Source: an uncultured Ruminococcus sp. (GTDB taxonomy: Bacteria > Bacillota > Clostridia > Oscillospirales > CAG-272). Taken from it: DNA of 58,092 bases. Under the pieces are notes generated by a model. The model was given only the letters and a program-made list of their open reading frames with translations. It did no database searches and was not told the origin of the DNA. This document shows, piece by piece, positions 1,686 through 56,741 of this stretch. A program made the translations under genes and the position numbers. How positions within the stretch are numbered: the stretch's first letter is position 1; each line of letters opens with the position of its first letter. The stretch covers positions 1 through 58,092 of the forward strand of contig CACWLT010000006.1 in the NCBI GenBank assembly GCA_902761695.1, written 5' to 3'.

Positions 1686-1888
1686 TAATGCTAAATCCTT
1701 TCTAAGGGGATACGCGGCTTCTTGAAAGAAACCCAGAGCAGCAAGCTGCTCGGCAAGAACTTTATACTATCAACTGGTGCAGCGTTCTTCTTTACGTGCA
1801 GCACGGGGTAACGTACAGCGCATTATTTTCAGGTTATGCTTTTCGCGCATCATGGTCGGATTGCCCTTTTAGGCTGAGAAGAGCATAA
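1686..1888 (+). mobile_element. MITE-like TIR repeat, copy A (203 bp)
   Basis: Left end TAATGCTAAATCCTTTCTAAGGGGATACGCGGCTTCTTGAAAG. Right end CCCTTTTAGGCTGAGAAGAGCATAA is its imperfect reverse complement. Invariant core GTGCAGCACGGGGTAACGTACAGCGCA at 1796-1822. Starts 7 nt after the SBP stop codon. Confidence 0.75.
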
Positions 1889-2199: not shown

Positions 2200-3081
2200 A
2201 TGACCATACTTGACGGAATCAAATCTTCGCGGCTGATCCCGGGGGACGGTACCCATGCGTTCCGGGATCCGGCGGTGATCTGCCGGGACGGGGTTTTCCG
2301 GCTGTACTGCACCTATGTGGAGACGGAGGCGGACGGCGGGATCTATATGTACACCGTTCTCATGCGCTCGACCGACCTCGTGCATTGGAGCGCGCCCCGG
2401 AAGCTGACGCCGCGGGACCGGGCCCTCAATTTCTCCAGTCCCGGAAACATCGTGGAATGGCGGGGGGAATACGTGATGTGCCTCCAGACCTACTGCCGGG
2501 AGAACGGGGAGAAATACGGGAACGAGCGGAGCCGGATCTGGACCATGCGCAGCCGGGATCTGGAAAACTGGGACGAGCCCCGGCCCCTGATGGTGAAGGG
2601 GGACGTGCCGTTATCCGGGATGGGGCGGATGATCGATCCCTATCTGATTTACGACGGGGCGTCGGGGCTCTGGAACTGCTTCTACAAGCAGAACGGGGTG
2701 AGCAGGTCTACCTCGCCGGATCTGGAGCGCTGGGAATACCGGGGAGCCTTTCCGGGCGGGGAGAACGTCAGCGTCATCCGGCGGGGCGGGGAATACCTCA
2801 TGTTCCACTCCCCGGAGAACGGGATCGGGGTGAAGCGGTCCTTCGATCTTGAGCATTGGGAGGACGCCGGGGCGCTTCTGACCTTCGGGCAGCGGGACTG
2901 GCTCTGGGCGAGAGGGCGTCTGACGGCGGGATTTGTTCTGCCCTATGAGGAGGACGGGGAGACGGTTTATCTCATGTTCTTCCACGGCACGGGGCCCGAG
3001 GACGAGCGCGTGGATTTCGACAGGAACGCCTCCATCGGGCTGGCCTGGAGCCGGGATCTGGTGCGGTGGGAGTGGAGATAA
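2200..3081 (+). CDS. Beta-propeller glycoside hydrolase-like protein (GH43/GH130-clan-like), cytoplasmic
   Basis: 293-aa ORF with no signal peptide. Repeated blade-like segments (FRDPAVICRDGVFRLYCT, MIDPYLIYDG.SGLWNCFYK, GEYLMFHSP, VYLMFFHG). The family call is approximate. Confidence 0.5.
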   Translation: MTILDGIKSSRLIPGDGTHAFRDPAVICRDGVFRLYCTYVETEADGGIYMYTVLMRSTDLVHWSAPRKLTPRDRALNFSSPGNIVEWRGEYVMCLQTYCRENGEKYGNERSRIWTMRSRDLENWDEPRPLMVKGDVPLSGMGRMIDPYLIYDGASGLWNCFYKQNGVSRSTSPDLERWEYRGAFPGGENVSVIRRGGEYLMFHSPENGIGVKRSFDLEHWEDAGALLTFGQRDWLWARGRLTAGFVLPYEEDGETVYLMFFHGTGPEDERVDFDRNASIGLAWSRDLVRWEWR

Positions 3082-3272
3082 TACTAATCTCATTCAAAAA
3101 GGGAAAACGCGGCTTCTTGAAAGGGAAGCCCCGCTCAACAAGTTGAGGGGCAAGAACTTAAATAATCCACTGGTGCAGCTTTCTTTTCTTCGTGCAGCAC
3201 GGGGTAACGTACAGCGCACTTATTTAGCTTTGCTTTTTCCATGTATTTGCTGGATTGTTGAGAATAGTATAA
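3079..3272 (+). mobile_element. MITE-like TIR repeat, copy B (194 bp)
   Basis: Begins TAATACTAATCTCATTCAAAAAGGGAAAACGCGGCTTCTTGAAAG, where the TAA is the stop codon of the upstream gene. Same 27-nt core. Right end TTGAGAATAGTATAA. Confidence 0.75.
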
Positions 3273-36170: not shown

Positions 36171-37418
36171 ATGGACATGGAGAGGAAAGCAGTGAAACAG
36201 GTCATTTTGCGGTTTATGGCATGCAGCGATCTGCACTACAAGAACGATCCCGCCTGCCGGGAGAAAAAGCGCTTCGAGGAGGGGCTCCGCCAGCTGTATG
36301 CCTACGCGGATTCCCAGCCGTACAAAGCCGTAGATGCGGTGTACATCGTTGGGGATTTCACCGATCAGGGCACCATGGAGCAGATGACGCTGGTGAAGGA
36401 GTCCCTGGACCGGGGACTGCGGCCGGGAACGGAGGCGGTGCTCTGCATGGCGTCCCACGAATACGGCGGTCCGGGCGGACAGACGGGGGCGCGGGAGCGG
36501 TTCGGACAGATCTTCGGGCAGGACGCGGACACCCATCGCGTCATCCGGGGGTTTCACTTCATCGCCGTGTCCACGGACGAGGACTGCCGGTTCTGGGAGC
36601 CGCAGGTTTCCTTTGCCGCCGGAGCCCTGGAGGCTGCGCACGAGGATGATCCCCGGCGGGCGGTCTTTTTCTTCCAGCATCCCCATCTCACGGACACGGT
36701 GTACGGAAGCATCGTATGGGGGGAGCGGGACCTGAATCCGACCCTGTACAACTATCCGCAGGTCATCGATTTCTCCGGCCACTCCCATGTTCCGATCAAC
36801 GACCCGCGCTCCATCCATCAGGACTATGTCACGTCGGTGGGCACGGGAACCTTCAGCTATTTCGAGATGGACGAGTTCGACAAGATCTGCGGTACGTTTC
36901 CGCCCGACGCTGGGGAGGCGGCCCAGATGCAGATTGTGGAGGCCTTCGACGACGGCAGCGTGCTGATCAAGCCCTGGGATGTGCTCACGGGGCAGCCCTT
37001 CCACGAAGGATGGACGGTGGAGCGGCCCTGGGATCCGGCGTCCTTCGTCTACACGCGGCCCATCCGGTACCGGTTCGCGGAGAATCAGAAGCCCCGGTTC
37101 CCGGAAGGCGCGGTCCTCACGGCGGAGCAGACGGAGGCGGGCTTCAGGCTGACCTTCGATCACGCGGAGAAGGTGATGGGATCGGACGGCAGGGAAGAAG
37201 ACGTGGACGACTACGTCATTACGGTCCGGGACGGGGACGGGATCCTGTGCCGCCGGTTCGTGATCTGGTCGCCCTATTACCTGACGCGGCGGCCGGAGAA
37301 GATGAGCTACGATTTCCCGAAGCTGAAAAAGGGCGTCTACACCGTGGCGGTGAAGGCCCGGGGTTTCTGGCGCAACGAATCGGAGGACTGCCTCAAAGCG
37401 GAGCTGATCGTTGAGTGA
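36171..37418 (+). CDS. Calcineurin-like metallophosphoesterase with a C-terminal beta-rich domain
   Basis: FMACSDLH, VGDFTDQG, SHEY, FFFQHPH and FSGHSHVP motifs. The true start may be the GTG at 36192 (GGAGAGGA upstream). Confidence 0.7.
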   Translation: MDMERKAVKQVILRFMACSDLHYKNDPACREKKRFEEGLRQLYAYADSQPYKAVDAVYIVGDFTDQGTMEQMTLVKESLDRGLRPGTEAVLCMASHEYGGPGGQTGARERFGQIFGQDADTHRVIRGFHFIAVSTDEDCRFWEPQVSFAAGALEAAHEDDPRRAVFFFQHPHLTDTVYGSIVWGERDLNPTLYNYPQVIDFSGHSHVPINDPRSIHQDYVTSVGTGTFSYFEMDEFDKICGTFPPDAGEAAQMQIVEAFDDGSVLIKPWDVLTGQPFHEGWTVERPWDPASFVYTRPIRYRFAENQKPRFPEGAVLTAEQTEAGFRLTFDHAEKVMGSDGREEDVDDYVITVRDGDGILCRRFVIWSPYYLTRRPEKMSYDFPKLKKGVYTVAVKARGFWRNESEDCLKAELIVE

Positions 37419-37598
37419 ACTAATCTCAATCTAAAAGGGAAACGCGGCTTCTTGAAAGAAGCCTGGCAAGAACTTTCAAAATACCCTGGTGCAGCTTCCT
37501 CTCAAAATGCAGCACGGGGTAACGTACAGCGCATTTTTCAGGTTCTGCTTTTTCACACGCCTTTATCAGATTTCCCTTTATAGCTGAGACAAGTATGA
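37416..37598 (+). mobile_element. MITE-like TIR repeat, copy C (183 bp, compact form)
   Basis: TGAACTAATCTCAATCTAAAAGGGAAACGCGGCTTCTTGAAAGAAGCC… where the TGA is the upstream stop codon. Same 27-nt core. Right end TTTCCCTTTATAGCTGAGACAAGTATGA is the inverted left end. Confidence 0.8.
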
Positions 37599-51920: not shown

Positions 51921-51987
51921 CGGACGAGGGCTGGCCGACGGAGATTGACAGATAGGAATTGACCGGCGGGGAGGGCCGACAGGAAAG

Positions 51988-53235
51988 ATGAACAGGAAGA
52001 ATTTTGCGTTTGACGGATCCATGACGAGAGAGGTGCTGGAAAACTACCTCTCCCGGGCTGTCACCCACACGGGGCTGACCTACGACAACATGGCGCCCTC
52101 CCGCACCTTTGCGGATGATCTCCGGATGCTCCTTTCCGAAGGGGCGAAGTTCGTGGGGCGGTGCGGGCTGATCTGGCAGGCGACGGACGAAAAAGAGCAC
52201 CGCCGGGTCTCGAGGGAGAGAGCGGAGATCATCCACCGGGCAGATCCCGAGATCATCCTGCAGGGCTGTATTTTTGAATGTATCTGGAAGCCCTACATCG
52301 ACAGCCTGCCCGTTCCCGCATGGGTGTTCGAGGCGTTCGGCCTGCCTGTTGAAGCGCGGAATTTCAGCTACGACGCCATGCTCTACCCGGACGGCACATT
52401 TGTGAATCACTGGGGGATAAACGGCGGATCGGTGGAGGACATCCGGCAGCTCGAGACCCGGATGTACATCTATTACCGCGCCCGGTGCTACATCGACGAC
52501 GGGTTCGAGGCCCTTCACTTCGGGCAGGTCCACCTGATTGGGGCGAAGGACGAGGGCTTCCTTTACTGGAAGGAGACGCTGGACCGGGTGCGAGCTTATG
52601 CGAAAGAACACGCCCGGCGGCATTTCGTCCTCTGCGACGCCCACACCCACGGGATCACCGTGGACGGCGTGTCCCTCTTCGACTACAACGCATGGCCCCT
52701 GCGATTGAAGGAGATCCCGGATCAGCCGCTGGCCTGCGTGCTGGAGGAAGGGTACAACGACAGCATCTGGGGACGGTCGAAGGGCGGCATGACTCCTTCT
52801 GGATGGTACGCAGACTCCCTGCCGTATCTGGTGGAGTTCGACAACTTCGGCAGACGCCCGGACGCCCCGGTGCCGACCCTCGACAGCCACTACGCCTGGG
52901 GCTACGACGAGATCGACTGGCTCATGCTGCACAAGAAGGAGGAACGGGCGGCGATCATCCGGTATGTGTACGATTTCGTCCGGGCACACGGCGGGCACCT
53001 GGAAATGCCTTCCCGCCGCTGTCTGACGGAGGAGTATGAATCGGTCTGGGCGCACCCGGACACGGACTGGCTGGACCGGGTGGCGAAGGACGAATTCCTG
53101 CGGTACACGGTGGACGAGGACGGAAACGCGCACATCCTCCGCCGGTATTACAGCGCGAACAACCCGTCGGACGGCTGTCCCTTCGGGCTGGGCGACGAGG
53201 AGATTATCACGGAGCTCTGGCGCGGGGAAGAATAA
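51988..53235 (+). CDS. Hypothetical 415-aa cytoplasmic protein (possibly TIM-barrel glycan-active)
   Basis: Long ORF in the coding frame of a GH island, with no recognisable motifs. Its TAA stop lies inside the terminal repeat of MITE copy D. Confidence 0.3.
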   Translation: MNRKNFAFDGSMTREVLENYLSRAVTHTGLTYDNMAPSRTFADDLRMLLSEGAKFVGRCGLIWQATDEKEHRRVSRERAEIIHRADPEIILQGCIFECIWKPYIDSLPVPAWVFEAFGLPVEARNFSYDAMLYPDGTFVNHWGINGGSVEDIRQLETRMYIYYRARCYIDDGFEALHFGQVHLIGAKDEGFLYWKETLDRVRAYAKEHARRHFVLCDAHTHGITVDGVSLFDYNAWPLRLKEIPDQPLACVLEEGYNDSIWGRSKGGMTPSGWYADSLPYLVEFDNFGRRPDAPVPTLDSHYAWGYDEIDWLMLHKKEERAAIIRYVYDFVRAHGGHLEMPSRRCLTEEYESVWAHPDTDWLDRVAKDEFLRYTVDEDGNAHILRRYYSANNPSDGCPFGLGDEEIITELWRGEE

Positions 53236-53388
53236 TACTATTCTCAGTCTAAAAAGGAAATTTGAATAAGGTATGGGAAAGCAGAACCTGAGAAAATGAG
53301 TTGCACGTTACCCCGTGCTGCACTTTGATAAGGTCCGGGCTTCCCTTTCAAGAAGCCGCGTTTCCCTTTTAGCTTGAGATTGGTATTA
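53233..53388 (-). mobile_element. MITE-like TIR repeat, copy D (156 bp, internally shortened, reverse orientation)
   Basis: Plus-strand ends are TAATACTATTCTCAGTCTAAAAAGG … CCCTTTTAGCTTGAGATTGGTATTA. The core variant is GTGCAGCACGGGGTAACGTGCAACTCA on the minus strand. Both flanking convergent stop codons lie within the termini. Confidence 0.8.
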
Positions 53389-54546
53389 CGCTTCCGCCCC
53401 GAGGACGGCGGCGTAGGCGGTGTTGCGGATCATGCCGTGCCATTCGTACCACTTTGATCCGGCCTCCTGCTGGGCGTAGAAGATGCCGACGCCGTTTTCC
53501 GGGTCCGCCAGCAGATAGCAGCCGAGAGCTCCGTCCCAGCCGAACTCCCCGTTGGCGCTTAAGGAATTGTTCCGCTCCCGGCAGAGCAGGGTCCGCACGC
53601 CCAGACCGTAGCCGTAGCCCGCCTTGCTCCAGCCGCCCATGGCCTCGAAGTCCCGCATGGCGTCGGGGTTCAGCTGATTTTCGCGCATGGCGTCGACGGA
53701 TTCCGGGGAGAGCACGCGTACCCCGTCCGCCGTGACGCCCCGGTTGGAGAGCATGGCGGCCAGCTTCGCGTAATCACGGAGGGAGGAGATCAGCCCGCCG
53801 CCTCCGGAACGGTACGCGGGTCCCATGCCCATGTCCACGCCCTCCTTGCGGATCACGGCGCGGGCAGTCCCCATGGCTCCGTCAAAGCCGTGGATCTCGG
53901 GGGCCATGCGGGACCGCTGCTCCTCCGTCAGCACGAAGGTTGTATCCGTCATGCCGAGGGGATCGAAGAGCTCCCGGCGCAGTACGTCGGGGTAGGGAAT
54001 GCCCGCCGCCGCCTCCATCACCGCCGCCAGCACGTCGTGGCAGAAGCTGTACCGGAAATGGGTCCCCGGCTCAAAGGCCAGAGGCTCCGCGACAAGGGCC
54101 GCCGCGACCTGCCGGGTGGTGGGGCGTCCGTTCGTTTCCCGGATGAGGTTCTTCACGGCGGCGGTGGTGCCGTCGTAGGTGAGGCCCGCCGACATGGACA
54201 GCAGGTGGCGCACCGTGATGGAGATCCGGACGGGATGAACCTCTCCGTCCTCTCCCCGCACTGTCGCCCGGTCCAGCTCCGGGAGCCATTCCGCCGCCGG
54301 GGCGTCCAGCGTCAGGATTCCCTTCTCGATCAGCCTCACGGCGGCTGCGGCGGTGGAGATCTTGGTGGCGGAATAGAGGTTCACCAGGGTGTCCGGTCCG
54401 AAGGGAATCCCCCGCTCAAAGTCCGCGAATCCGGCGCAGTGCTCGTGGACGGTTTTCCCCCCGACGGTGACGGCGCACCCAAGGCCGGGGATGTTCTTCT
54501 CCCGGTAAAAGCTGTCGAGATACCGGTCCAGAGCGGTAAAATTCAT
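53386..54546 (-). CDS. Beta-lactamase-family serine hydrolase (class C/esterase type)
   Basis: ORF trimmed to MNFTALDRY at 54546 (GAGGAGGAAGG upstream, ATGA overlap with the upstream stop); LYSATK is an SxxK motif. Confidence 0.7.
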   Translation of the reverse strand: MNFTALDRYLDSFYREKNIPGLGCAVTVGGKTVHEHCAGFADFERGIPFGPDTLVNLYSATKISTAAAAVRLIEKGILTLDAPAAEWLPELDRATVRGEDGEVHPVRISITVRHLLSMSAGLTYDGTTAAVKNLIRETNGRPTTRQVAAALVAEPLAFEPGTHFRYSFCHDVLAAVMEAAAGIPYPDVLRRELFDPLGMTDTTFVLTEEQRSRMAPEIHGFDGAMGTARAVIRKEGVDMGMGPAYRSGGGGLISSLRDYAKLAAMLSNRGVTADGVRVLSPESVDAMRENQLNPDAMRDFEAMGGWSKAGYGYGLGVRTLLCRERNNSLSANGEFGWDGALGCYLLADPENGVGIFYAQQEAGSKWYEWHGMIRNTAYAAVLGAEA

Positions 54547-55511
54547 GCCTTCCTCCTCATCCACCCCGCCGGCAGATCGTCGAGCGGTTCCGGCAGGGTG
54601 AGTTTCTTCCCCACCTCGGCGAAGGCGGCGCGGAGGTTGTCGTCCACCGATCCGTCCGCACGGGGGCTGATGTTGTTCATGAAGTTCACGTTCTTCGAGA
54701 AGCAGTCCTCTGCCAGCTCCACGATCCAGTCCGCGGACCGGGGCGGCGTTTCGGGATCCGTGGCCCGCCAGAACCACGTCCCGGTCATTTTCTGGCAGAG
54801 GATCCCGGGGCCGGAGAACTCCCCTTCCAGCTTCTGTCCCGCGCCGCCCTCGTAGAAGCAGATGTCGGAATGCTCGATGTCCTTCGTCCATCCGATGCAG
54901 AGGGAGAGGCAGTCCGGCTGGAGGGATTTCACAAGGCCGTCGATCTCCTCAAAGGGCAGGGCTTCGTAGGACGGTCCGCCCCAGGGGGAGCTCCACCCGT
55001 CGAACATGATGAAGGGGATCTCGCCGTAGTTCGTGAGAAGCTCCGTGATCTGCCCCTTTACGGCCGCAACCTGCTCCGGGGTGCAGCTGCGCCGTCCGAA
55101 GCCCGCCGTCAGATCGAGGATGGAAAAATACAGTCCCGCCACGATCCCCGCCTCCCGGAACGCCGTCAGATATTCCTTTACCACATCCGTTTTGTTCGTC
55201 GCGTTGCGGACGCAGTGCTCGGAGTACGCCGTGGGCCAGGTGCAGAAGCCCTCGTGGTGCTTGGTCGTATAGGCGGCGAAGCGGCATCCCCCGGCTTTCG
55301 CGGTTTCGGCCCACTGACGGCAGTCGAGGTGTGTCGGATTCCAGTCCTTTTCATTGAAGGGGTATTTCCGGGGCTCGTTCCCGTTTTCGTGCATGAACTC
55401 CCAGTCCTCGGTGTCCCCGGTGTTGAACTGGACTGCCGCGCTGTTCCAGTGGATGAAGGTCCCCATGCGGAGGTTGATGAAGTTTTTCTGTAATGTCTCA
55501 AGATGCGTCAT
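54543..55511 (-). CDS. GH29 alpha-L-fucosidase (catalytic domain only, 322 aa)
   Basis: MGTFIHWN, TTKHHEGFCTWPTAYSEHCVRNA and LYFSILD motifs. Confidence 0.7.
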   Translation of the reverse strand: MTHLETLQKNFINLRMGTFIHWNSAAVQFNTGDTEDWEFMHENGNEPRKYPFNEKDWNPTHLDCRQWAETAKAGGCRFAAYTTKHHEGFCTWPTAYSEHCVRNATNKTDVVKEYLTAFREAGIVAGLYFSILDLTAGFGRRSCTPEQVAAVKGQITELLTNYGEIPFIMFDGWSSPWGGPSYEALPFEEIDGLVKSLQPDCLSLCIGWTKDIEHSDICFYEGGAGQKLEGEFSGPGILCQKMTGTWFWRATDPETPPRSADWIVELAEDCFSKNVNFMNNISPRADGSVDDNLRAAFAEVGKKLTLPEPLDDLPAGWMRRKA

Positions 55512-55552
55512 GATGATGGATCCTTTCGTTTCGGGCTTGCGGTGCCGTTCCC

Positions 55553-55581
55553 ATTATACAGGATCCGCGGAGGCATTTCCA
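55553..55581 (-). promoter_or_regulatory. Minus-strand promoter for the GH29/serine hydrolase pair
   Basis: Read on the minus strand: TGGAAA (55581-55576), 17-nt spacer, TATAAT (55558-55553). Confidence 0.45.
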
Positions 55582-55602
55582 CCCCTTTCGCGCAATTCGT
55601 TC

Positions 55603-55631
55603 AAACGGAGTACACAAAGGTGTGGTACAAT
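55603..55631 (+). promoter_or_regulatory. Extended -10 promoter for the esterase gene
   Basis: TGGTACAAT with the -10 at 55626-55631; the -35 is weak. Confidence 0.35.
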
Positions 55632-55658
55632 GGGACAAATCAGGAAGGAGGCTTTGTT

Positions 55659-56525
55659 ATGTCCGAATGGAAACGCATTCCCGACCGGTATCGGGAGTCG
55701 GCTGAACCGGAGAAGAGCGGCACTCTCCGAGAATTTGCCTACACTGACCGGGGTACGCCCCGCCGCGCGCTGGTCTATCTGCCAAACGGTTATGAGGAAG
55801 AAGGGGAGCGGCGGTATCCGGTTCTGTTCCTCATGCACGGCGGCGGGGGGAACGAGGAAGAGTTCTTCGGGGGCCTGGACGCGAAAATGCCCCTGAAGCC
55901 CATGCTGGACCGGATGATCGGGGAGGGACTGGTACGGCCCCTCATCGTCGTAACGCCCACCTTCAATCGGCCTGTGGATGAAGGCGTGAACCCCGACGCG
56001 GTGCGGGTCCATGCCGGGGATGCCGCCGCGCTGACCGCCGTATTCTGGCGTGAGCTTGAAGAATCCCTGATCCCGGCGGTGGACGCGGCCTTCCGGACGG
56101 AGGGGAACCGCGATTTCCGTGCCTTCGGCGGATTCTCCATGGGCGCGGAGGCCACCTGGAGCGTGCTGTGCCGGGGAGGGGCTGCTGTCCGGTACTATCT
56201 GCCCATGAGCGGGGACTTCTGGGCCGTGAGCGTCAAGGGCGGCAAGGACCACACCGCCGAGACCTGCGACCGGCTCATCGACGGGATCCGGGAACGGGGG
56301 CTTTCGCCGGAGGATTACCGGGTGTTCGCCGTCACCGGAGAGCAGGATATCGCCTATGAGGCCATGAAGCCCATGACGGAGGAGCTGCTCGGCCGGGCGC
56401 CCTGGTTCCGGAGCGCGGACGAAGGGGGCAACCTGACCTGGCGCGTCTCCCCCGGCTGGCATGCCTACGAGTGGTGCTGGGACTATATCGCTCTGGCCCT
56501 GCCGGAGTTCTTTCCGGGGGCGTGA
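55659..56525 (+). CDS. Alpha/beta-hydrolase esterase (CE1/feruloyl-esterase-like)
   Basis: ATG at 55659 (GGAAGGAGG upstream); YPVLFLMHGGGGNEEEFF; GFSMGA is the GxSxG nucleophile elbow. Confidence 0.7.
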   Translation: MSEWKRIPDRYRESAEPEKSGTLREFAYTDRGTPRRALVYLPNGYEEEGERRYPVLFLMHGGGGNEEEFFGGLDAKMPLKPMLDRMIGEGLVRPLIVVTPTFNRPVDEGVNPDAVRVHAGDAAALTAVFWRELEESLIPAVDAAFRTEGNRDFRAFGGFSMGAEATWSVLCRGGAAVRYYLPMSGDFWAVSVKGGKDHTAETCDRLIDGIRERGLSPEDYRVFAVTGEQDIAYEAMKPMTEELLGRAPWFRSADEGGNLTWRVSPGWHAYEWCWDYIALALPEFFPGA

Positions 56526-56722
56526 TACTAATCTCAAGCTAAAAGGGGAACGCGGCTTCTTGAAAGAAACCCAGAGCAGCAAGCTGCTCGGCAAGAACTT
56601 TAAAGTACACTGGTGCATTTTCCTTCTCAAAGTGCAGCACGGGGTAACGTACAGCGCATTTTTTCAGGTTTTTTTTTCACACATCTTGGTAAGTTTGTCT
56701 TTTTTTGGATGGGTATAGTATA
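56523..56722 (+). mobile_element. MITE-like TIR repeat, copy E (about 200 bp, degenerate right end)
   Basis: TGATACTAATCTCAAGCTAAAAGGGGAACGCGGCTTCTTGAAAG, where the TGA is the esterase stop. The internal hairpin GAGCAGCAAGCTGCTC is identical to copy A. Same 27-nt core. The right terminus GGGTATAGTATAG only partly mirrors the left. Confidence 0.7.
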
Positions 56723-56741
56723 GAACCCGGGCGTCATGAGC

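Follow-up and report, generated by a model that had tools for sequence, protein, structure and literature searches.

The 156 bp at positions 53233-53388 of the 58,092-nt stretch of uncultured Ruminococcus sp. DNA analysed here (contig CACWLT010000006.1, hereafter the window) are one copy, designated copy D, of a short dispersed repeat that lies between two convergent genes and reaches the stop codons of both. We consider it likely that this repeat is a miniature inverted-repeat transposable element (MITE) targeting T-N-A triplets, that the stops at the ends of copy D are native to the two genes, and that copy D is a probable hybrid of two copies. As the original prediction had recognised, copy D occupies the entire intergenic gap: the 150 nt that separate the two convergent stops are repeat throughout, and the sequence and the open reading frames (ORFs) confirm the TAA of the plus-strand gene at 53233-53235 and the TAA of the minus-strand gene (TTA on the plus strand at 53386-53388). 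The layout from 53233 to 53388 is TAA-TACTATTCTCAG...CTTGAGATTGGTA-TTA. Both flanking genes were taken as real because the minus-strand product matches PF00144 and the plus-strand product, which has no Pfam domain, has 1834 homologs at E ≤ 1e-20. The features of the locus are given below.

51988-53235, plus strand: gene of 415 amino acids, function unassigned, no Pfam match (ORF list, homologs)
53233-53235, plus strand: left flanking triplet TAA, at the position of a target-site duplication and stop of the 415-amino acid gene (sequence, family comparison)
53236-53246, plus strand: left terminal inverted repeat TACTATTCTCA (L end), followed by subterminal CTAAAAAGG (sequence, alignment)
53303-53318, minus strand: core hairpin GCACG-GGGTAA-CGTGC with a T-rich tail, terminator-like for the beta-lactamase-like gene, in the region of the invariant 18-mer 53305-53322 (terminator scan, folding)
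53333-53334, no strand: junction of a 48-nt internal deletion, missing AAACTGCACCAGTGTATTTATAAAAGTTCTTGCCGAGCAGCTTGCTGC (alignment with locus L035)
53338-53371, plus strand: hairpin GGCTTC-(loop)-GAAGCC followed by GCGTTTCCCTTTT, terminator-like for transcripts of the 415-amino acid gene (folding, −10.5 to −11.3 kcal/mol)
53375-53385, plus strand: R end of the element, with the right terminal inverted repeat TGAGATTGGTA; 9 of 11 positions pair with the left repeat (sequence, alignment)
53386-53388, minus strand: right flanking triplet, TTA on the plus strand and TAA on the minus strand, stop of the beta-lactamase-like gene
53386-54546, minus strand: gene for a beta-lactamase-fold serine hydrolase of 386 amino acids (Pfam PF00144, E = 2e-59)

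Comparison with element-free orthologs indicates that both stops at copy D are native stops at native positions and that neither C-terminus was re-defined. The 415-amino acid protein ends in ...ELWRGEE, and its two closest orthologs whose genes lack the element stop at the same codon with a TGA of their own. One of these (L037) is 94% identical in amino acid sequence and ends in ...EVWHGED, and the other (L005, from RUG12348) is 93% identical and ends in ...LWHEED; in both, an unrelated gene comes next. The beta-lactamase-like protein ends in ...AAVLGAEA, which is the modal end column of its family, with about 12 of 50 orthologs ending exactly there. Its nearest element-free ortholog (L040, 89% amino acid identity) has its end one residue later, at a TGA. 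The stops had been placed within the terminal repeats of the element. They do touch its ends, but they are the flanking triplets, and the inverted repeats are 53236-53246 and 53375-53385; the stops occupy duplicated host target triplets, not the inverted repeats.

The two flanking triplets of copy D do not form a direct repeat. Removal of copy D in silico leaving TAA gave reading frames of 415 and 915 amino acids for the plus- and minus-strand genes, respectively (native 415 and 386), removal leaving TTA gave 438 and 386, and removal leaving TA gave 424 and 414, so that, as predicted, neither ORF stops at the latter position. No single-triplet empty site keeps both genes intact, and since the two triplets also differ (TAA/TTA), copy D is not a simple insertion. 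A related arrangement was found on a metagenome contig (L094), where an ortholog of the beta-lactamase-like gene (88.5% amino acid identity, ending in ...AAILGAEV) has its TAA at the R end of the repeat (the GCGGCTTC side), which is the junction seen in copy D. On its other side that copy abuts a PfkB kinase gene whose TGA falls precisely at the L end, and the triplets are mismatched, TGA/TTA. Across the family, mismatches between the two triplets involve the central N in 12 pairs versus the T or A positions in 5 pairs, an excess more readily explained by exchange between copies than by random mutation. Copy D probably arose as a hybrid of two copies or through two events. In the most probable scenario one copy would have sat on the stop of each gene, and recombination between them would have removed or replaced the DNA in between, leaving a hybrid copy flanked by two stops. 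The suggestion that the element replaced an older intergenic spacer comes nearer to the evidence, in that the triplets differ and neither of them alone would give back both stops; the hybrid origin itself is something we infer.

The repeat family and its target triplets

Five copies of the repeat (A-E) were identified in the window by blastn and alignment. The 15-mer terminus has seven matches in the window versus 0.21 expected, the copies have a GC content of 42-46% versus 63% for the window, and column identity among copies of the window genome is about 76%. An invariant 18-mer at 53305-53322 is identical in all five. The repeat had been described as resembling a mobile element with terminal inverted repeats, and the five copies with their TACTAWTCTCA ends bear this out.

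1686-1888, minus strand: copy A, triplets TAA/TAA; the stop of the upstream gene is 7 nt ahead of the element
3079-3272, minus strand: copy B, triplets TAA/TAA; TAA 3079-3081 is the stop of gene 2200-3081
37416-37598, minus strand: copy C, triplets TGA/TGA; TGA 37416-37418 is the stop of gene 36171-37418; 1-2 nt lost at the R end
53233-53388: copy D, 156 bp, triplets TAA/TTA
56523-56723, minus strand: copy E, TGA 56523-56525 is the stop of esterase gene 55503-56525; L end degenerate

Copies B, C and E thus carry the stop of the upstream gene, as had been noted, and the R end is oriented to the upstream gene in copies A, B, C and E. Duplication of a gene together with its repeat was rejected: copies C and D each lie downstream of a 415-amino acid gene, but these two genes are not related to each other.

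The invariant core 18-mer, ACGTTACCCCGTGCTGCA, served as the probe for a wider collection. It recovered about 29 loci in one rumen metagenome-assembled genome (MAG), uncultured Ruminococcus sp. RUG12348, many of them at contig ends, one locus in a second Clostridiales MAG, and 117 additional loci in rumen metagenomes. A profile search gave 185 hits that collapse to 135 unique insertions; both ends are present in 62 of these. These 62 complete copies span 179-218 bp and fall into length classes of about 186, 202 and 217 bp that correspond to zero, one and two copies of a small optional hairpin; apart from copy D, none is shorter than 179 bp. Every complete copy is bounded by the imperfect terminal inverted repeats TACTAWTCTCA and its complement. 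At 66 of 95 R ends the frame that runs into the element meets a stop (TAA) no more than two codons past the triplet, and, judged from this feature and from its short length, the element appears to be without coding capacity.

The triplet outside the termini is T-N-A in nearly all copies. The left and right triplets are identical, as a direct repeat, in 45 of the 62 complete copies, compared with a mean of 17.0 (standard deviation 3.2, maximum 29) when partners were permuted in 20,000 trials. Matched pairs are TTA/TTA (20), TCA/TCA (16) and TAA/TAA (6), and also include the non-consensus pairs CGA/CGA and AAA/AAA. As the central base is repeated directly and not inverted, the triplets represent a 3-bp target-site duplication.

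Several loci bear on mobility. A 224-bp relative (L031:3787-4010, here L031b) shares about 25 nt of the L terminus and about 70 nt of the R terminus with the family but differs completely in its core; it represents a second MITE subfamily using the same ends. In different genomes, the repeat is found in opposite orientations at one insertion site with the same flanks and triplet (L113:6828-7009 versus L015:559 and L029:145, the latter pair from RUG12348), and likewise at one T-N-A in L105:2666 versus L109:9271. Either the element flips at its site, or the same T-N-A was hit independently more than once. At the stops of both the 415-amino acid gene and the beta-lactamase-like gene, the element is present in some relatives and absent in others. 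The second subfamily with the same termini, the opposite orientations, the presence or absence at orthologous stops, and the lack of an Rfam match or covariation are indicative of a MITE mobilised in trans.

Stop-codon coincidence and orientation

Contact between repeat and stop codon is common throughout the family, at about one-third of the gene-facing ends. An ORF of at least 120 codons ends exactly in the flanking triplet at 31 of the 88 R ends that could be assessed and at 8 of the 89 such L ends, and the distances from gene to element show a sharp spike at 0. As a null we assumed insertion uniform over the local T-N-A sites up to 60 nt past the stop, of which there are 3.4 per 63 nt, the stop itself included. 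Among the 50 gene-proximal insertions, 25 lie exactly on the stop versus 18.5 expected (P ~0.03). Specific targeting of stop codons was rejected on this comparison, and because the uniform null already predicts 18.5 of the 25, most of the stop effect is due to scarcity of targets. TAA and TGA are themselves T-N-A triplets, and few others are available in the dispensable DNA of a 63% GC genome; an insertion on a stop duplicates it and does not alter the protein. The coincidence stems mostly from T-N-A target choice, the GC-rich genome, and selection against insertions within genes. A transposon with this target in a GC-rich genome reaches stop codons almost by default. For annotation this means that stops seemingly supplied by the repeat are native and that the protein ends need no revision.

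Orientation at these sites is biased. Among copies at exact stops, 25 site clusters have the R end on the gene side and 6 have the L end there (p = 0.0009), whereas insertions 1-60 nt downstream of a stop are balanced, with 13 R ends and 12 L ends toward the gene. Preference for the central base fails to account for the bias at exact stops. A backup in-frame TAA was rejected as its cause, since this TAA was found in 18 of 31 exact-stop copies versus 66 of 95 R ends, without enrichment.

Assemblies, neighbourhood and alternative explanations

The original prediction described copy D as an internally deleted variant. Copy D does lack 48 nt, but only in this assembly. The same locus on a 58.8-kb ENA scaffold (L035), and likewise in an assembly from a different study (L041, 97.5% identical), carries a full 204-bp copy including the central 48 nt. 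The deletion junction, AAGG|TCCG, has no microhomology. The 48-nt deletion is private to the window assembly; it reflects either a variant of the strain or a shortcut in assembly and does not define a subfamily. The window and L035 are otherwise identical but for 11 substitutions within 115 nt of the 415-amino acid gene (52698-52812), a patch that looks like a strain variant or a small gene-conversion tract. A strain chimera with a switch in identity at the deletion point was rejected, as the 11 differences cluster away from the element.

The order GH3, tRNA_edit, 415-amino acid gene, beta-lactamase-like gene recurs in L039 and L040, and the adjacency of the last two genes in the window is probably real. 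In L040 a 10-nt spacer (L040:4165-4174) separates convergent tRNA_edit and beta-lactamase-like genes where the window has a 1.46-kb block (51921-53385) comprising a leader, the 415-amino acid gene and copy D. In L039, a more distant relative, the 415-amino acid and beta-lactamase-like genes are co-directional with a 4-nt overlap. Rearrangements have affected this gene pair repeatedly.

We considered three other accounts of the locus. The central idea of the original prediction, that the insertion made new stops and so re-defined both C-termini, draws on the contact of both stops with the element and on the lengthening of both ORFs when removal leaves TA. It is almost certainly wrong: element-free orthologs reach the same end positions and have their own stops, with the 415-amino acid protein ending at the same codon and the beta-lactamase-like protein at the modal column. 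By the ortholog comparison that had been proposed as a check, which gave the same end positions without the element, the re-definition idea fails; the meaning attached to that outcome, coincidental sequence similarity, is also incorrect, as the stops are duplicated T-N-A triplets. A single insertion at one stop, followed by a point mutation between TTA and TAA that created the second stop and trimmed a longer protein, would be in keeping with triplets one base apart, with the divergence of the old copies of the window genome (about 76% column identity), and with mutated triplets elsewhere in the family, such as CTA, TCT and TTG. It would also require an ancestral 415-amino acid gene 23 codons beyond its conserved end, or a beta-lactamase-like gene more than 500 codons beyond its own, whereas both proteins end where element-free orthologs do; moreover, L094 keeps the beta-lactamase-like junction, and the gene on its left, a different one, likewise stops right at the element. 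We regard this scenario as quite unlikely. An assembly artefact, by which two MITE copies were joined or a shortcut was taken within one to give the junction, the 48-nt deletion or both, so that no cell would contain the gap-filling copy in this form, is unlikely as well, if slightly less so. Contig breaks are very frequent inside the repeat, two assemblies differ by 48 nt precisely within the element, and a chimeric join would yield mismatched triplets. Nevertheless, both 58-kb assemblies join the same genes and are identical outside the patch of single-nucleotide differences at 52698-52812, the copies of the window genome differ too much from one another for collapse at ordinary k-mer sizes (exact shared runs of about 18-26 nt), and the order of the tRNA_edit, 415-amino acid and beta-lactamase-like genes matches L039 and L040.

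The family as a whole might instead be a conserved structured RNA or a regulatory element in the 3' untranslated region of the upstream genes, and not a transposon. The internal cores are invariant, the hairpin loops are GAAA or UUCG, one stem has a compensated change, and the orientation bias toward the upstream gene (25 versus 6 site clusters at exact stops) would suit such a function. Against it stand the terminal inverted repeats and 3-bp direct repeats, the occupation of the same site in either orientation, orthologous stops with or without the element, neighbouring genes that are unrelated to each other, and the dozens of near-identical copies held by one genome. Rfam searches of the window gave no match at the gathering score, and in E-value mode only a chance match to a clustered regularly interspaced short palindromic repeat (CRISPR; E = 6); the consensus fold is likewise devoid of covariation. 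We consider an RNA element very improbable. Integron attC sites and repetitive extragenic palindromes or bacterial interspersed mosaic elements (REP/BIME) were dropped on account of the inverted termini and the 3-bp direct repeat and the lack of a cassette context.

Set against these arguments for a T-N-A MITE with native stops and a hybrid copy D are several observations that weigh against it. No clean single-triplet empty site was recovered; in the one direct search, a degenerate empty-site pattern for a young copy (L020) had no match in the metagenomes, and the parental arrangements needed by the hybrid model did not turn up. No autonomous element or transposase with the same termini was present in the approximately 150 loci or in plasmid or phage collections. 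All loci come from short-read metagenome assemblies, and mismatched triplets may partly reflect joins across repeat copies. The terminator-like hairpins of copy D are weak (−10 to −11 kcal/mol, z scores −0.9 to −2.2), and for a larger RNA fold 0 of 30 predicted pairs in the consensus are compensated, all being invariant. A search for a parent insertion sequence (IS) through inverted termini 0.26-4 kb apart returned solely nested or duplicated MITEs. Rumen metagenome contigs break or are mis-joined at the repeat, and variants within it, the 48-nt deletion among them, are not to be relied on without reads.

Related elements and internal features

The target is reminiscent of the IS1031 group of the IS5 family, which prefers 5'-TNA-3' and exclusively generates a 3-bp direct repeat (PMC12016507, PMC1676026). 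The present family shares the TNA target and the 3-bp direct repeat with members such as ISLrh and IS1031. Unlike it, elements of that group are 0.85-0.95 kb long and encode a transposase, and the published repeat of ISLrh, GAACCTGTCTAGTATCT, differs from the terminus TACTAWTCTCA. We treat the IS5/IS1031 link as a lead and not as membership. Closer in build are the Correia/NEMIS elements of Neisseria, which are non-coding, AT-rich and shorter than 220 bp, have terminal inverted repeats and a target duplication, are mostly intergenic and co-transcribed with their neighbours, have reported promoter-like and RNA stem-loop signals, and exist in two forms, the shorter of which has lost about 50 bp internally (PMC2229807). 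The short, non-coding, AT-rich build, the terminal inverted repeats and the target duplication are common to both. However, Correia elements duplicate TA, whereas the present family duplicates T-N-A with a variable, directly repeated centre; the termini are unrelated, the two share no sequence similarity, and their hosts belong to different phyla. The short form of Correia is a subfamily, whereas the short form here, copy D, is a single private variant. RUP of Streptococcus pneumoniae, a MITE from a Firmicute, is about 107 bp long, has stop codons in all frames and is presumed to be mobilised in trans by IS630-Spn1 via shared termini (PMC2229807). In contrast to the present family, RUP targets TA and has a known parent IS, and its sequence is unrelated. 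Tourist-type MITEs, placed with the PIF-Harbinger transposons, are also short non-autonomous elements with a 3-bp TWA/TNA duplication, but they are eukaryotic, and their termini are unrelated to those of the present family. The repeat is a new MITE family of a known kind, like Correia/NEMIS and RUP.

On the strand read from a gene at the R end, the core of the commonest subfamily folds as GUGCA-GCACG-GGGUAA-CGUGC-AG-UGCAC followed by U5 (−15.1 kcal/mol). In copy D folding of this hairpin gives −10 kcal/mol, and the tail is poorer. The second hairpin, written as RNA, is GGCUUCUU-UCAA-GAAGCC followed by GCGUUUUCCUUUUU, and it was also called terminator-like in L025; its GGCTTC/GAAGCC stem has a compensated variant, GGCTTTCT/AGAAAGCC, in L003 and L031b. 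From their predicted folds, the two hairpins of copy D are the only candidate terminators for the convergent gene pair and could supply both directions. A promoter-like TTGACA-17 nt-GAGAAT directed outward is present at 40 of 102 unique L ends, and its −10 hexamer terminates 4 nt within the element; an example is the sigma-70-like site L025:1397-1425 (plus strand, 10 of 12 matches). As the −10 hexamer lies within the left inverted repeat, transcripts would start at the element boundary. Degenerate versions in the window are found near 53236-53275 (minus strand), 3245-3272 and 37560-37598.

These signals raise the tentative possibility, which we rate as rather doubtful, that the repeat is a portable gene-end cassette that sits on stop codons with its R end to the gene, and that exchange between copies reshuffles genes without damage to the ORFs. 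If so, each copy would come with an outward promoter and two terminators, one serving the upstream gene and the other blocking incoming antisense transcription, and copy D and the copy in L094 would be one beta-lactamase-like gene end joined to two partner genes. The arrangement of the copies suggests, without proving, that they may serve as points of recombination that keep ORFs intact and as ready-made terminators where genes are tightly packed.

The optional hairpin module is inserted zero, one or two times between GAAGCC and GGCAAGAAC (alignment columns 48-86) and occurs in the window at 1733-1748, 3131-3149 and 56572-56587. It comprises three unrelated sequences, GAGCAGC-AA-GCTGCTC, GCTCAAC-AA-GTTGAGC and AGGCAT-RAA-TGCCT, which keep the position and the hairpin. 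Full-length copies also contain three direct repeats of GCTGCAC at a spacing of about 17-21 nt (GCGCTGCACG, GTGCTGCACG and AGCTGCACCAG; window core 53296-53330), the third of which was lost from copy D through the 48-nt deletion. These repeats could form a protein-binding array, instead of or besides an RNA structure. Loose matches to the terminus pattern were also detected outside the MITE at L031:2580, L017:1451 and L034:1960 (TACGAATATYA, with TTTGTCAA about 30 nt later), and may stem from a different short repeat, or from an operator-like motif, of RUG12348.

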